Of a stretch of DNA of 61,583 nt, positions 39,280-46,767 are shown in pieces. The notes under the pieces are model-generated. The model was not told the DNA's origin. It was given only the letters and a program-made list of their open reading frames with translations, and did no database searches. Where the stretch lies: the NCBI GenBank assembly GCA_002328025.1, contig DCVE01000010.1, positions 1 to 61,583 of the forward strand, written 5' to 3'. The stretch comes from Patescibacteria group bacterium UBA2196 (lineage in GTDB: Bacteria > Patescibacteriota > Patescibacteriia > UBA2196). The stretch's first letter is position 1, and the number at the start of each line of letters is the position of its first letter. A program made the translations under genes and the position numbers.

Positions 39280-40383
39280 TTACTGCCTAATTGGCATCAC
39301 TAAATACATAAAATTATCATTAGTGGTGGACTTAAAAACAATTGGATTTATGGGTGAGTTAATTAAAATTTTAGTTTTTAGAGAATTTATATTATTTAAT
39401 CCATCTAATAAAAATTTATAATTAAAAATCACAGTTTCATCACTCCCTGTGTGATTAATATTTATTTTAATAATATTCTCACCTAACTGAGAATTAATTG
39501 ATCTAACTATAACCACATTTTTTATAAATTCTAAAGTTACATCAAAAATACCACTTTTAGTAAACAAACTAGCTGCTTTAATTGCTTTAATTAATTCTGT
39601 ATTATCAATTTCAATTTCAATACCAAACTCGCGTGGTATTATTTGTTGATAGTCTGGATATTCCCCTTCAATTAAACGTGAAATTATTATAGTTTCTTCA
39701 AAATCAAACTTAATTTGATTTTCCTCAAAATCAAGAATAAAATATTCTTTTGTTGTATCATTAATAATCCGCACCAACTCTTGCGTTGATTTTAAGGGTA
39801 TAATTATTTTTTCTTCTATTTTTACCTCTTGTTCTAACTCTATTTTTTTTTCCGCTAGACGATAACTATTGGTGGCAGCTAAAATTAAACTTTTATCTTT
39901 AAACCAAAACAAAACTCCAGTTAATTCTGGTTTAGTTTCATTATAAGAGGTTGCAAACATTACACTATTTAAACTATTTTTTAAATCAATAGTTTTAATG
40001 GGGTATTTTTTTAATCCTTTTACCTCTGGAATTAAAGGATAATCTTCAGCTGGGTTGGTTTTAATTTTTGTTTGCCACCCATCACTGTTTATTATCACCT
40101 CTCCCTCTTGTGTTTCTAATGATATGTTTTTATCACCATTAATTAAACTTATATAATCTGTAATTATCTTAGCTGGTATAGTTACCTTACCACACTGCTC
40201 TATCTTACCCCTTATAATTGTTTTAACCCCCATCTCTAAATTAGTAGCCGAAAGTTCAATTACCCCGTTTTCAGCTTTAATTAAAATATTATTTAAGATT
40301 GGTAAATTAAAATTCCTCCCTGTTAAGTGAGAAACTCTTAATAAACCTAAAATTAAATTTTCCTGTTTACAAATTATTTTCAT
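39280..40383 (-). CDS. dnaN: DNA polymerase III beta sliding clamp
   Basis: 367 aa directly downstream of dnaA; three-domain clamp-sized protein ending ..MPIRQ. Confidence 0.85.
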   Translation of the reverse strand: MKIICKQENLILGLLRVSHLTGRNFNLPILNNILIKAENGVIELSATNLEMGVKTIIRGKIEQCGKVTIPAKIITDYISLINGDKNISLETQEGEVIINSDGWQTKIKTNPAEDYPLIPEVKGLKKYPIKTIDLKNSLNSVMFATSYNETKPELTGVLFWFKDKSLILAATNSYRLAEKKIELEQEVKIEEKIIIPLKSTQELVRIINDTTKEYFILDFEENQIKFDFEETIIISRLIEGEYPDYQQIIPREFGIEIEIDNTELIKAIKAASLFTKSGIFDVTLEFIKNVVIVRSINSQLGENIIKININHTGSDETVIFNYKFLLDGLNNINSLKTKILINSPINPIVFKSTTNDNFMYLVMPIRQ

Positions 40384-40450
40384 ATATTTTATATTTATAT
40401 TATTTAGAGTATTTAAATAAATTAATAATATATAGTAATAAGAGTGTAGA

Positions 40451-40644
40451 AGTGTATAAAATTTTATTTTGACTTAAAAAGTCATTTTATAACATCTATA
40501 GACTTTTATATAATTCACTTTTGATGTGGATATTAAGTTTTTTAAAAAACAATTAAGTGGATAAAAAATATTTTTTTAGTTTATTTTTATATATAGGTTA
40601 ATAAAATGATAATTTATAATTTTTTATACACATATTTATACACT
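40451..40644. promoter_or_regulatory. DnaA-box cluster in dnaA-dnaN intergenic region (oriC part)
   Basis: TTATACACA perfect box at 40624..40632; 8/9 boxes at 40451, 40525, 40556, 40636; very AT-rich surroundings. Confidence 0.6.
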
Positions 40645-42013
40645 ATTTATTGTATAGTTTTTGTTTAATAAGTAATATGTTTTGTTTAATTTTTCCATCA
40701 TTATTAAATTCTTCTTTAATTTTAGTGTAGGCATGCATAGCTGTGGTATGATCACGATTACCTAGTTCGTGACCTATTTTAATAAATGATGTCTCTAATT
40801 CTTCGCGCATTAAATACATAGCAATTTGTCTAGGCACGACTAATTCTTTTTTACGTGATATACCAATTATTTCAGTAGTGGATATATTAAAAAATTCAGA
40901 CACGGTTTGTATAATAGATTTATTAGAAAGTGAACTTTTTGGAATAATTGTATTTATACTTTGTAAAATACTTTTTACCTCATCTAGGGTTGGTTTGTGG
41001 TTGTTTAGTTGAAAACGAGCATATAAGTGATTTAAGGCACCCTCTAGTTCTCTAATATTGCTCTGTATGTTTTCCGCTAAATAACTAATAATGTTTTTTT
41101 CCAAACTAAAGTTTTTATCCATAGCTTTCTGTTCCAAGATGGCCACTCTGGTTTCATAGTCAGGTGTGGAAATATCAGCCGTCATCCCCCACTCAAAACG
41201 TGATTGTAATCTTTGTTCTAGATTTTGGATAGCCTTTGGTGATCGATCAGAAGAAATAATTAATTGCTTGTCTTTTTGATAAAGATCATTAAAGGTGTGA
41301 AAAAATTGTTCTTGGGTTTGTTCTTTACCAGCTATAAACTGTATATCATCAATAATTAAGACATCTATATTACGATATTTTTGTTGAAATTCATTAGCTC
41401 TATTAGTCCTTAAGGTATTAATAAATTCATTGGTGAATTTTTCACAAGTTAGATAAAGTAGTTTTATGTTTGGTTTATTATTAAGTATTTCATGTCCTAT
41501 AGCTTGTAGAAGGTGAGTTTTACCCAACCCAGCCTGTCCATAAATATATAATGGATTATAAGCACTTCCAAGGGCTTTAGATACTGCTTTGGCGGCTGCG
41601 TGGGCTAATTCATTGTTTTTTCCCACAATAAATTTATCAAAGGTGTATTTTGGATTTAAACCAAATTGGTTTTTAGGACAACCTTCCTCCTTCTCCTCAG
41701 TATTTGAATTACAATTAAAGTTGTTTATTTTTTCTTTTAAATTAGCTAAGTTTGTTGGTTTATTATTTATTTCAACCTTATAAAAAATCTGATTTATAGT
41801 GTTATTGGTGATGTGTTTTAAAGCCGTGACAATTTCATTTTGATATTTGTTTTCTAACCAAGTTTTAGTGAAGCCATTGGGTACACCCACAACAATACAA
41901 CTGTTTTCTTGTGAAACAATAAAAGTATTTTTAAACCAGGTTGTAAAATTAGCTTTACTTAAAGTTAATTCTAACTCACCTAAGATAGCTTGCCAAAGTT
42001 GTTCATTAGTCAT
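40643..42013 (-). CDS. dnaA: chromosomal replication initiator DnaA
   Basis: AAA+ Walker A GQAGLGKTHLL, IDDIQF, C-terminal DNA-binding domain ..RDHTT..HA..KI. Confidence 0.95.
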   Translation of the reverse strand: MTNEQLWQAILGELELTLSKANFTTWFKNTFIVSQENSCIVVGVPNGFTKTWLENKYQNEIVTALKHITNNTINQIFYKVEINNKPTNLANLKEKINNFNCNSNTEEKEEGCPKNQFGLNPKYTFDKFIVGKNNELAHAAAKAVSKALGSAYNPLYIYGQAGLGKTHLLQAIGHEILNNKPNIKLLYLTCEKFTNEFINTLRTNRANEFQQKYRNIDVLIIDDIQFIAGKEQTQEQFFHTFNDLYQKDKQLIISSDRSPKAIQNLEQRLQSRFEWGMTADISTPDYETRVAILEQKAMDKNFSLEKNIISYLAENIQSNIRELEGALNHLYARFQLNNHKPTLDEVKSILQSINTIIPKSSLSNKSIIQTVSEFFNISTTEIIGISRKKELVVPRQIAMYLMREELETSFIKIGHELGNRDHTTAMHAYTKIKEEFNNDGKIKQNILLIKQKLYNK

Positions 42014-44924: not shown

Positions 44925-45287
44925 TTATTCCTTCTCTATTAAAATAGAGCTCTCCATGCTGACTTTTCCATCCAAACGAGCACCTGTGGCTATGGTTAAA
45001 ACTTTGGCTGAAATGTCGCCGGTTATTTTGGCTGTAGCTGTTAATTCCAAACTCTCGGTTATTTTCAAGTTACCTATAACTTGTCCGGCCACCAACGCGT
45101 TAGCCGCCTCAACATCTGCTATAATTTTAGCATTTTCACCCACGGTTAAGTTTTTTTTGGTGGACAATTTACCTTCTACACCACCCTCTACAATCACGTC
45201 ACCCTCGCCCTTAAAATCCCCTTCAATTTTAACGGTGGATCCAATAATGGTTTCCACATCTTTAAATTCTTTAGACATAGACGTCAT
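44925..45287 (-). CDS. bactofilin-family cytoskeletal protein
   Basis: Beta-helix repeats IIGSTVKIEGDFKGEGDVIVEGGVEGKL..; the + strand ORF here is its shadow. Confidence 0.8.
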   Translation of the reverse strand: MTSMSKEFKDVETIIGSTVKIEGDFKGEGDVIVEGGVEGKLSTKKNLTVGENAKIIADVEAANALVAGQVIGNLKITESLELTATAKITGDISAKVLTIATGARLDGKVSMESSILIEKE

Positions 45288-45437: not shown

Positions 45438-45509
45438 GCCCCCGTAGTTCAATGGATAGAACAAGGGACTCCTAAGCCTTAAATATAGGTCCAATTCCTA
45501 TCGGGGGCA
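45438..45509 (+). tRNA. tRNA-Arg(CCT) with atypical T-loop (TCCAATT)
   Basis: Cloverleaf; anticodon loop CTCCTAA; A31-G39 mismatch; position 55 is C. Confidence 0.7.
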
Positions 45510-45550
45510 TAGGTGGTGGCAGGTAGCGGTGCGGACTCTTTATTTTGTTG

Positions 45551-45621
45551 GGGCTTATAGTATAGTGGTAATATGCCGCATTCGCATTGCGGAGACGCGA
45601 GTTCGATTCTCGCTAAGTCCA
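45551..45621 (+). tRNA. tRNA-Ala(CGC)
   Basis: Cloverleaf; anticodon loop TTCGCAT; G3:U70 pair. Confidence 0.8.
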
Positions 45622-45681
45622 AAATTTGATAAATTTATTTTATTTTGATATTCTGTTATCAAAATCTAGCAATAGTTATAT

Positions 45682-45754
45682 GGGCCCTTAGCTCATTTGG
45701 TAGAGCGCTTCCATGGCATGGAAGAGGTGAGGGGTTCGATCCCCCTAGGGTCCA
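45682..45754 (+). tRNA. tRNA-Ala(GGC)
   Basis: Cloverleaf; anticodon loop ATGGCAT; G3:U70 pair. Confidence 0.9.
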
Positions 45755-45763
45755 TATATAAAG

Positions 45764-45786
45764 ACCACTGTCTAGCAGTGGTTTTT
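45764..45786 (+). terminator. intrinsic terminator after tRNA cluster
   Basis: ACCACTG-tctag-CAGTGGT followed by TTTTT. Confidence 0.65.
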
Positions 45787-46037
45787 ATATTACAACACAA
45801 TTTGACATAATCACCAAAAATCTGTCTAATTCCACAAAAACATTAACTTTAGCTAATATAAAACAAAAACCAAATAAAACACCTGTTTTTCATAAAAATC
45901 AATTTATTTTAATAAAAAGTATGGTTTTATTTAAAGTTAGCCAAAAAAACAAAAAACGCATCATATTTTATAAAATATAGGTTTTTTTAAAAACAACTAT
46001 ATATAAGATTGTGAACTATTTCTACATAAAAATGTAT

Positions 46038-46053
46038 TGTTCCACGTGGAACA
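46038..46053. promoter_or_regulatory. parS-type ParB-binding palindrome TGTTCCACGTGGAACA (copy 1; palindrome extends over 46033..46058)
   Basis: Fits the known parS consensus TGTTNCACGTGAAACA at 15 of the 16 positions (position 5 is N); perfect dyad. Confidence 0.7.
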
Positions 46054-46130
46054 ATACATATAGTAGATCTTTTTGAGAATTTTTTTATAACAATTGTATT
46101 TTTAGCTTATATTAGTCAAAATAATTGAAT

Positions 46131-46146
46131 TGTTCCACGTGGAACA
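46131..46146. promoter_or_regulatory. parS-type palindrome TGTTCCACGTGGAACA (copy 2)
   Basis: Identical 16-mer, 93 bp from copy 1. Confidence 0.7.
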
Positions 46147-46172
46147 ATGTAAAATATACAAATGTCCAGACC

Positions 46173-46195
46173 AGTGTAGACAAAGTGTGTATAAG
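46173..46195 (+). repeat. 23-nt repeat AGTGTAGACAAAGTGTGTATAAG containing DnaA box TGTGTATAA (46186..46194)
   Basis: 22/23 identical to 46288..46310; box matches TGTGNATAA 9/9. Confidence 0.6.
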
Positions 46196-46242
46196 TAGCT
46201 CAAAAAGGCTGTTTTAGAGGATAACTTTGGTAAACTTAAAAT

Positions 46243-46258
46243 TGTTCCACGTGGAACA
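46243..46258. promoter_or_regulatory. parS-type palindrome TGTTCCACGTGGAACA (copy 3; palindrome extends over 46238..46263)
   Basis: Identical 16-mer, 112 bp from copy 2. Confidence 0.7.
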
Positions 46259-46287
46259 ATTTTAAATTATGTAGTTTTGTCTACATT

Positions 46288-46310
46288 AGTGTAGACAGAG
46301 TGTGTATAAG
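46288..46310 (+). repeat. 23-nt repeat AGTGTAGACAGAGTGTGTATAAG containing DnaA box TGTGTATAA (46301..46309)
   Basis: Second copy; same position relative to the preceding parS. Confidence 0.6.
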
Positions 46311-46459
46311 ATGCATAAAAACACGCCTCTAGGGGATAAGGTAGAGGTTGGGCTGGTTTTATAATTAAAAACTATTCACAGGATATGGTTTAATTAAATC
46401 TAGCTCCGCCATAAATTTTGGGTTATAAAATTTTAAATAATCAAAATAGACCACTTTAG

Positions 46460-46489
46460 TTTACATATTTTAAGTATGTATGCTATAAT
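46460..46489 (+). promoter_or_regulatory. promoter TTTACA-18-TATAAT with TG extension
   Basis: TTTACA at 46460, TGCTATAAT at 46481..46489, upstream of 46537 CDS. Confidence 0.45.
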
Positions 46490-46536
46490 CAATACATATA
46501 TACACACACAGACTATATATAATATACACAAAAAAT

Positions 46537-46767
46537 ATGGAATTGATTGAGAATGAAAAGACAAAAAAAGAAAGATTTAAGAAATCTGCTGAATCTCGTA
46601 CTATTAATGTGCTTAGAGCTTTAAAAGTACTTGGTAATTGTGCTAACCAAAATCTATATAACTACCATGAATATGAAATAAACAAAATTTTTAGGATAAT
46701 TGAAAAAAAGGTTCTTGAAACCAGGGGTAAGTTTGAAACCATAGATGAAGAAAGTTTTAAATTGTAA
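46537..46767 (+). CDS. small hypothetical protein (76 aa, helical, basic N-terminus)
   Basis: ORF with own promoter directly after the parS/DnaA-box array; no recognised domain. Confidence 0.45.
   Translation: MELIENEKTKKERFKKSAESRTINVLRALKVLGNCANQNLYNYHEYEINKIFRIIEKKVLETRGKFETIDEESFKL

Follow-up and report, generated by a model that had tools for sequence, protein, structure and literature searches.

In Bacillus subtilis, parS sites are spread through the fifth of the chromosome nearest the origin, mostly inside genes. The datA and DARS loci of Escherichia coli, which lie near but outside the origin proper, carry DnaA boxes beside IHF/Fis sites. Pseudomonas aeruginosa has a cluster of four sites, parS1-4, near oriC and six more sites elsewhere (PMC4368675, PMC7022226), and in Myxococcus xanthus 24 parS sites precede parAB at a distance of about 30 kb from the origin (PMC3778016). 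Here we describe an array of three identical palindromes in intergenic DNA of a 61,583-nucleotide stretch (contig DCVE01000010.1 of assembly GCA_002328025.1; hereafter the window) from Patescibacteria group bacterium UBA2196. We read the three palindromes as chromosomal parS sites, i.e., as the ParABS centromere of a small Patescibacteria genome, and give this reading a probability of about 0.88. The initial annotation of the window had already called them parS-type, and the match to the parS consensus, the presence of a cognate ParB in the genome, and the origin-proximal position bear this out. A literature search found no paper joining parS, ParB, and Patescibacteria.

Three exact parS matches in one intergenic spacer

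The 16-mer TGTTCCACGTGGAACA occurs three times in the window, as first reported, with starts at 46038, 46131, and 46243 and centers at 46045.5, 46138.5, and 46250.5, i.e., 93 and 112 bp apart. All three copies are exact matches to the parS consensus TGTTNCACGTGNAACA; dinucleotide-preserving shuffling of the window, repeated 100 times, never gave three or more matches, even with two mismatches permitted. The copies, none of which is assigned to a strand, have the 20-mer ATTGTTCCACGTGGAACAAT in common and form the cores of longer perfect palindromes: copy 1 (46038-46053) of 28 bp (46032-46059), copy 2 (46131-46146) of 20 bp (46129-46148), and copy 3 (46243-46258) of 30 bp (46236-46265). The 26 bp initially given for the palindromes around copies 1 and 3 was thus a slight undercount. 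The same annotation placed the 16-mer one symmetrising change away from a known ParB site, but the symmetric form is itself characterized: it is identical to the experimentally studied parS2 and parS3 of P. aeruginosa and is also listed as parS of P. putida, and the parS of M. xanthus reads TGTTCCACGTGGAACG (PMC4368675, PMC7022226).

The genome assembly that we searched comprises 754,364 bp in 18 contigs and is 99.8% complete. Besides the array, it holds no match to the exact 16-mer at up to two mismatches and no match to TGTTNCACGTGNAACA at up to one mismatch. Three matches to TGTTNCACGTGNAACA with two mismatches were found beyond the array (C1:15880, C5:13988, and C9:9022, given as contig and position). 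Each lies within an open reading frame (ORF), and none of the three was adopted as a secondary parS site. The first of them, GGTTTCATGTGGAACA, lies within a 417-aa ORF, and its syntenic counterpart in G001, a genome of the same genus (L030 4595), has one mismatch. Either a weak secondary site inside a gene or plain coding conservation could account for it, and its conservation is uninformative because the site sits in a coding gene that is 82% identical to that of G001.

The array occupies a 781-bp intergenic spacer (45756-46536, 26% GC) that extends from tRNA-Ala(GGC) to a 76-aa ORF, designated orf76, and lies 4.0 kb from the start of dnaA; the placement in intergenic DNA about 4 kb from dnaA is therefore confirmed. 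Copies 2 and 3 open tandem modules 1 and 2, respectively, each of about 113 bp (repeat spacings 112 and 115), and are parts of a tandem duplication of a unit consisting of a parS site, a 20-bp palindrome, and a DnaA box. Copies 1 and 2 were flagged as minus-strand hairpins with a T-run. Termination was rejected as their primary function, since no minus-strand gene enters the spacer and the motif is the parS consensus. An RNA gene within the spacer was ruled out by an Rfam scan, which at permissive E-values returned three tRNAs and sub-threshold noise and nothing more.

The genome encodes a single ParA-ParB pair

Absence of any ParB homolog had been named at the outset as an argument against parS; a whole-genome search returned a ParB, a ParA, and an SMC-family ATPase. 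In agreement with the initial annotation, the window holds no canonical parA or parB. The single canonical pair of the genome is located on contig C15. ParB (C15:6798-7703, 301 aa) is full length, with 170 bits to TIGR00180 and Pfam matches to ParB_N (106 bits), HTH_ParB (100 bits), and the dimerization domain ParB_C (31 bits). Its box for binding cytidine triphosphate (CTP), GERRxRA, reads GERRLRA. Among solved structures, those closest to it all belong to chromosomal ParB/Spo0J proteins, namely of M. xanthus (7BNK), B. subtilis (6SDK, 145 bits), Thermus thermophilus (1VZ0), Caulobacter crescentus (6T1F), and Helicobacter pylori (4UMK). ParA (C15:5921-6703; AAA_31, 214 bits) is encoded 95 bp upstream of parB. 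The SMC-family ATPase (C3:1485-3761) matches SMC_N with 221 bits covering both head halves and is the only SMC-like protein of the genome.

Four positions decide whether a protein of this family binds parS or the Noc-binding site (NBS): parS binders invariably have R173; N178 and R204 are conserved; and position 201 holds a small residue, with G preferred and S, C, or T allowed (Jalal et al., PMC7383237). The stretch SRPTFSNFIRLLS...SLSQAK of the ParB studied here gives R173, N178, F179, S184, S201, Q202, and K204, in Caulobacter numbering assigned by the ungapped motif register and a gap-free alignment to M. xanthus ParB. With two conservative departures, these residues are compatible with parS-type and not Noc/NBS-type recognition.

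The array lies next to the probable origin

The genes around the array follow the order dnaN (39280-40383) and dnaA (40643-42013), both on the minus strand, then rpmH, rnpA, yidD, yidC, and a PRC-barrel gene on the plus strand, DAGK and a bactofilin gene on the minus strand, three tRNA genes, the spacer, orf76, trxB, and rnhB. The contig, whose genes include dnaA, dnaN, rnpA, yidD, yidC, and 14 tRNAs, is chromosomal, and the position of the array is kept from genus to class; the resemblance to a plasmid-style centromere proposed in the initial annotation is contradicted by both. The 456-aa dnaA product has its homologues among the DnaA proteins of Patescibacteria metagenome-assembled genomes (MAGs). 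With identities of 51-55%, Ca. Kerfeldbacteria and Ca. Uhrbacteria provide its closest named relatives, and the source lineage is of the Patescibacteria group, i.e., the candidate phyla radiation (CPR).

GC skew along the contig stays negative as far as about 34.5 kb, is flat from there to about 46 kb, and is positive thereafter; the change of sign spans 34.5-46.5 kb. The cumulative G-C curve reaches its minimum at 40.4 kb, in the dnaA-dnaN spacer (40384-40642, no strand assigned), and a secondary low at 46.2 kb. The dnaA-dnaN spacer is extremely AT-rich, contains one perfect DnaA box and four with 8/9 matches, and is most likely oriC. A comparison of the array with the skew switch had been suggested from the outset; it places the array 5.4-5.9 kb from the cumulative minimum.

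Arrays occupy the same position in related genomes

We compared the locus with 41 relatives ranging from genus to class; the family level is represented by 13 genomes. ParB is encoded in 40 of the 41 relatives. Perfect TGTTNCACGTGNAACA sites are present in 14 of them, rising to 26 of 41 when the central dinucleotide is left free, and a reversed-pattern control gave no match in any of the 41. In the syntenic spacer, relatives carry one to six sites. Wherever sites are present in a genome, they are tightly grouped: six within about 430 bp in G008, five within about 640 bp in G006, four in G011 (about 380 bp), G003 (about 420 bp), and G032 (about 1.4 kb), and three in G012 (about 290 bp). Intergenic arrays of two to six sites are thus the norm in relatives, and dense chromosomal parS arrays are already known from M. 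xanthus with its 24 sites (PMC3778016), so that the tight cluster, initially considered unusual for a chromosome, is normal in this lineage.

The block of dnaN-dnaA, rnpA-yidD-yidC-PRC, DAGK-bactofilin, the tRNA-Arg(CCT), tRNA-Ala(CGC), and tRNA-Ala(GGC) genes, the parS array, and trxB-rnhB recurs among relatives. From dnaN-dnaA to trxB-rnhB, it was found within the family (G001, G003, G004, G008), the order (G016, G020, G015), and another family of the class (G037), and also in a Ca. Kerfeldbacteria MAG and another Patescibacteria MAG (L093). A tRNA-flanked spacer with parS or parS-like sites is seen in G001, G003, G004, G005, G008, G011, G012, G016, G020, G015, and G037. More distant relatives have parS sites threaded among these tRNA genes, and tRNAs flank or interleave the sites in 15 or more relatives. 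In a wider sample of Patescibacteria dnaA loci, parS lies within 7 kb of dnaA in only 4 of 40; linkage to dnaA is therefore specific to the order or class and no phylum-wide rule. Taken together, the comparison speaks strongly for a chromosomal centromere that is old and fixed in position, as opposed to a mobile or plasmid-derived element.

The sites themselves vary at their center. Most family members carry TGTTCCATATGGAACA, which has TA in place of the central CG (CATATG versus CACGTG). G001, where copy 1 corresponds to TGTTCCACATGGAACA and copy 3 to TGTTCCATGTGGAACA with its flanks also kept, shows half-changed CACATG/CATGTG centers at these two positions. Non-CG centers (TGTTCCATATGGAACA or CACATG) occur in the arrays of G003, G004, G006, G008, G011, G012, G016, and G017 (loci L044-L050 and L021). 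ParB position 202 is Q (GQAK, SQAK, or SQSR) in every genome with CATATG or CACATG centers, whereas the four sampled genomes with a GHA(K/R)-type ParB have CG centers only. The association may reflect co-evolution of ParB and parS or loss of CpG, and it is phylogenetically confounded, with few independent lineages.

A second tight triplet was observed in G005, on the 3.3-kb contig C22 (L028; 1375-1583), where two copies of TGTTTCACGCGAAACA and one of TGTTTTACGTGAAACA, all one-mismatch sites, represent a subtype that differs from the main array of G005. A split at a contig end, a second replicon, and a contaminant are candidate explanations.

How the ParABS centromere would work

The assignment of the array as a ParABS centromere is based on its identity to a validated ParB site, its uniqueness in the genome, intact ParA and ParB, proximity to the origin, and conservation of position. 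Read in this way, the array is the normal chromosomal centromere of the lineage, an ordinary element of known type and not a plasmid-like oddity. Four observations weigh against this assignment. The array and parAB are on different contigs of a fragmented assembly, which does not give the distance between them. Q202 and K204 of ParB stand where most characterized ParBs have H and R, so that affinity for the canonical site is an assumption. The position in G001 that aligns to copy 2 reads TTAGTCATATGTATAAAAGT and is not a site, which means that the site was either gained in the present lineage or lost in G001 and indicates that not every copy is strongly constrained. Finally, ParB-dependent loading of SMC is uncertain because the SMC homologue, with 758 aa, is short and gave no hinge-domain match; this protein may be a shortened SMC.

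By analogy with the established ParABS model, we infer that ParB binds here and spreads, and likewise what parts ParA and SMC play. According to this model, ParB dimers would recognize each 16-mer via their helix-turn-helix (HTH) domains, bind CTP at the GERRxRA-containing N-domain, close into clamps, and slide onto the adjoining DNA, so that the partition complex would then cover the tRNA/dnaA neighborhood. ParA would move this complex, which may also be where the SMC-family ATPase is loaded. With three loading sites in 230 bp, the array would provide a single robust nucleation zone beside the origin, which is probably the dnaA-dnaN spacer.

A second palindrome and DnaA boxes accompany parS

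parS copies 2 and 3 are each followed by a 32-bp composite (46163-46194 and 46278-46309) that consists of a 20-bp element, here termed EL20, 3 bp, and a minus-strand DnaA box. EL20-a (46163-46182, plus strand) is the imperfect palindrome TGTCCAGACCAGTGTAGACA and is nearly invariant in G001; EL20-b (46278-46297, plus strand) is the palindrome TGTCTACATTAGTGTAGACA. The boxes that lie 3 bp beyond them (46186-46194 and 46301-46309, respectively, both minus strand) are perfect copies of TTATACACA. These EL20-DnaA-box units are the best-conserved part of the spacer in the alignment with G001. Three DnaA-box-like sites with 8/9 matches follow on the plus strand (46372-46530), CTATTCACA at 46372 and ATATACACA at 46498 and 46522; the latter two overlap the leader of orf76, and taken by themselves these sites carry little weight.

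Elsewhere in the genome, EL20 occurs only at C6:1914 and C6:1980, upstream of the gene for a 97-aa HTH_17 protein (C6:2010-2303; PF12728, 30 bits), here named HTH97, which is divergent from a gene for a sigma factor of the extracytoplasmic function (ECF) type. Both copies are situated in the region between the two genes, each directly 3' of a TTGACA-N17-TATAAT-type promoter. HTH97 homologues are encoded in 10 of the 13 family genomes, with two to three EL20-like sites upstream of each, and belong to a Patescibacteria protein family that lacks a name and comprises at least 140 clusters. Within a genome, the EL20 variant co-varies between the HTH97 promoter and the parS spacer: G000, G001, G005, G008, and G011 have the GTAGACA type and G004, G006, and G012 the CTGGACA type. 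EL20 was not found at the parS loci of genomes from outside the family. A residue in the predicted recognition helix of HTH97 (RRA[LI]-K/N/R versus RRA[LI]-A) tracks the operator type, also in a 60%-identity homologue with a GTAGACA-type site, although this correlation is confounded by phylogeny and includes few independent lineages. In view of its near-invariance in G001, the restriction of other EL20 copies to the HTH97 upstream region, and this co-variation, EL20-a is a probable HTH97 binding site.

At +23 of the EL20 start, 11 of 24 parS-side sites, spread over 7 of 9 family genomes, have a DnaA box with at most one mismatch, versus none of 22 HTH97-side sites; 46278 is counted here in its plus-strand reading. 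The most economical reading of these patterns is that HTH97 would regulate its own gene and bind beside DnaA boxes within the centromere array. A more far-reaching idea, which we put forward as tentative and somewhat doubtful, is that the centromere of the family could be a composite in which parS is interleaved with EL20-3 bp-DnaA-box units, with EL20 as HTH97 operator, coupling replication control to segregation. If this is true, a lineage-specific DNA-binding protein would sit beside DnaA inside the ParB loading zone, and control of initiation would be physically coupled to the segregation complex.

Two attempts to read EL20 at the parS locus in terms of promoters led to no assignment. Promoters before the EL20 elements reach just 9/12 matches there, and the number of promoter-like sites (13 versus 7.4 +/- 3.2 in shuffles) is not clearly higher. 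Use of TGTGTATAAG as a -10 element with TAGACA as -35 was rejected by inspection, as the 7-nt spacing is incompatible with sigma-70.

A further type of palindrome, GCTAAT(N)TTAGC (TTTAGCTAATAT...), was observed at 45848-45868 and 46101-46121, at L027 530-620 and 1085-1100, and upstream of HTH97 in L038-L043. It recurs in both kinds of region, parS spacers and HTH97 upstream DNA, in several family genomes, and could be a third element shared by them or part of a promoter -35 region.

Alternative explanations for the array

The DnaA boxes raise the question of whether the spacer is primarily controlled by DnaA, either as the second part of a split origin or as a locus resembling datA/DARS that titrates or modulates DnaA, with parS as one component of a joint module for replication and segregation. 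Two perfect TTATACACA boxes and three 8/9 boxes within 350 bp place the spacer among the five segments of the genome that are richest in DnaA boxes, on a par with the dnaA-dnaN spacer. G001 has both perfect boxes unchanged, variation among boxes is mostly at position 5, the degenerate one (A, T, or C), where true DnaA boxes would show it, and the box 3 bp past EL20 is a feature of the parS side and not of the HTH97 locus. In addition, the secondary low of the cumulative skew lies by the parS spacer. However, the global skew minimum coincides with the dnaA-dnaN spacer, whose box cluster is equally strong and more AT-rich. Boxes with 8/9 matches are also common in AT-rich DNA (1.5 per kb genome-wide), and the DnaA box of the composite could belong to a longer, 32-bp site for another protein. 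We therefore consider primary control by DnaA a possibility on the less likely side, and one that is compatible with the array being the ParABS centromere.

The initial annotation had also raised the possibility that the palindromes are the operator of a local transcription factor such as the orf76 product. In this reading, the factor would govern orf76-trxB, and no centromere would be involved. The palindromes do lie upstream of orf76-trxB, and orf76 (46537-46767, plus strand), a lineage-restricted orphan, is present in 3 of the 13 family genomes (G000, G001, and G005), each time directly downstream of the parS array. Against this stands that the orf76 product has no Pfam or NCBIfam match, and thus no match to a DNA-binding domain, and amounts to 3 clusters in total among 5.8 billion proteins. 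The 10 other family genomes do without orf76, several of them with larger arrays at the same place, and the 16-mer is not its operator because arrays occupy this spot in genomes that lack it. On the same grounds (no family match, orphan status, and absence from most array-bearing relatives), orf76 was rejected as a regulator or parS binder. Moreover, its strong promoter lies 200 bp downstream of the last parS site; this near-consensus sigma-70 promoter of orf76/trxB (46460-46489, plus strand; TTTACA-18-TATAAT, TG-extended, 11/12 matches) has its -35 element kept in G001. Since this motif is parS in its universal form and the genome encodes a cognate ParB, we regard a mere operator as very improbable. 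A regulatory side effect of the centromere is plausible here, since P. aeruginosa ParB represses adjacent genes at intergenic parS sites (PMC7022226).

A plasmid- or phage-derived centromere integrated beside a tRNA gene would account for the adjacent tRNA genes, which are frequent integration targets, for tight iterated repeats like those of plasmid centromeres, and for the orphan orf76 beside the array, but is the least credible origin of all, as the spacer contains no integrase, replication, or partition gene, the tRNA-parS-trxB order is kept across families and orders of the class, the site is of chromosomal consensus and the sole ParB of chromosomal type, and 26% GC is ordinary for intergenic DNA of this genome.

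Genes flanking the spacer

With the ParABS centromere as the preferred reading, two neighbors of the array deserve mention. The cluster of tRNA-Arg(CCT), tRNA-Ala(CGC), and tRNA-Ala(GGC) (45438-45755, plus strand) marks the position of the centromere class-wide and is followed by a hairpin with a T-run (45764-45782, plus strand), the probable terminator of the tRNA operon. At levels from family up to class, the bactofilin gene (44925-45287, minus strand; PF04519, 87 bits) stays linked to the tRNA/parS block. The ParB-parS complex of M. xanthus is positioned by bactofilins (PMC3778016; bioRxiv 10.1101/2020.06.17.156356), and by analogy a functional tie of the neighboring bactofilin to ParB-parS is conceivable.

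Discussion

If the palindromes are parS sites, a reduced CPR genome would retain ParABS in textbook form, with one compact centromere beside the origin. The block of tRNA-Arg(CCT)/tRNA-Ala genes and parS near dnaA could serve class-wide as a positional marker for origins and centromeres in fragmented MAGs. The shift of the parS center from CACGTG to CATATG in relatives, with Q for H at ParB position 202, offers a natural experiment in ParB specificity, and the EL20-DnaA-box composite with its candidate HTH protein provides a lead on how replication and segregation may be linked in as yet unculturable organisms.

Coupling of this kind, if real, would loosely recall the pairing of datA/DARS with IHF/Fis, or the cross-talk between Soj and DnaA in Bacillus. 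As regards datA/DARS, the analogy concerns the composite alone and is functional only: in both, a DnaA box keeps a constant spacing to the binding site of another small DNA-binding protein. The sequences are unrelated, the accessory protein would here be of the HTH_17 type, and the composite is embedded in a parS array. Plasmid centromeres such as F sopC and P1 parS likewise have several closely spaced binding sites in non-coding DNA, but they are plasmid-borne, have sequences of their own, and adjoin their own parAB, whereas the present sites have the chromosomal consensus, a chromosomal contig, and a conserved position.

Among chromosomal systems, B. subtilis Spo0J shares the recognition family (consensus TGTTNCACGTGAAACA) and the domain organization of ParB, but in contrast to its scattered sites, those described here form a single intergenic cluster. 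M. xanthus resembles this locus in that a single centromere is formed by nearly identical TGTTCCACGTGGAAC-type sites packed densely on the chromosome, and the functional bactofilin link described there has a counterpart in the bactofilin neighbor here. The M. xanthus array adjoins parAB, whereas the present one, with far fewer copies, lies at a tRNA cluster 4 kb from dnaA with parAB on another contig. P. aeruginosa shares with this genome the identical 16-mer TGTTCCACGTGGAACA (parS2/parS3, and also the parS of P. putida), a few sites clustered near oriC, some of them intergenic, and ParAB of chromosomal type. Unlike in P. aeruginosa, all three sites are confined here to 230 bp of one spacer, as the only sites with up to one mismatch in a 0.75-Mb genome.

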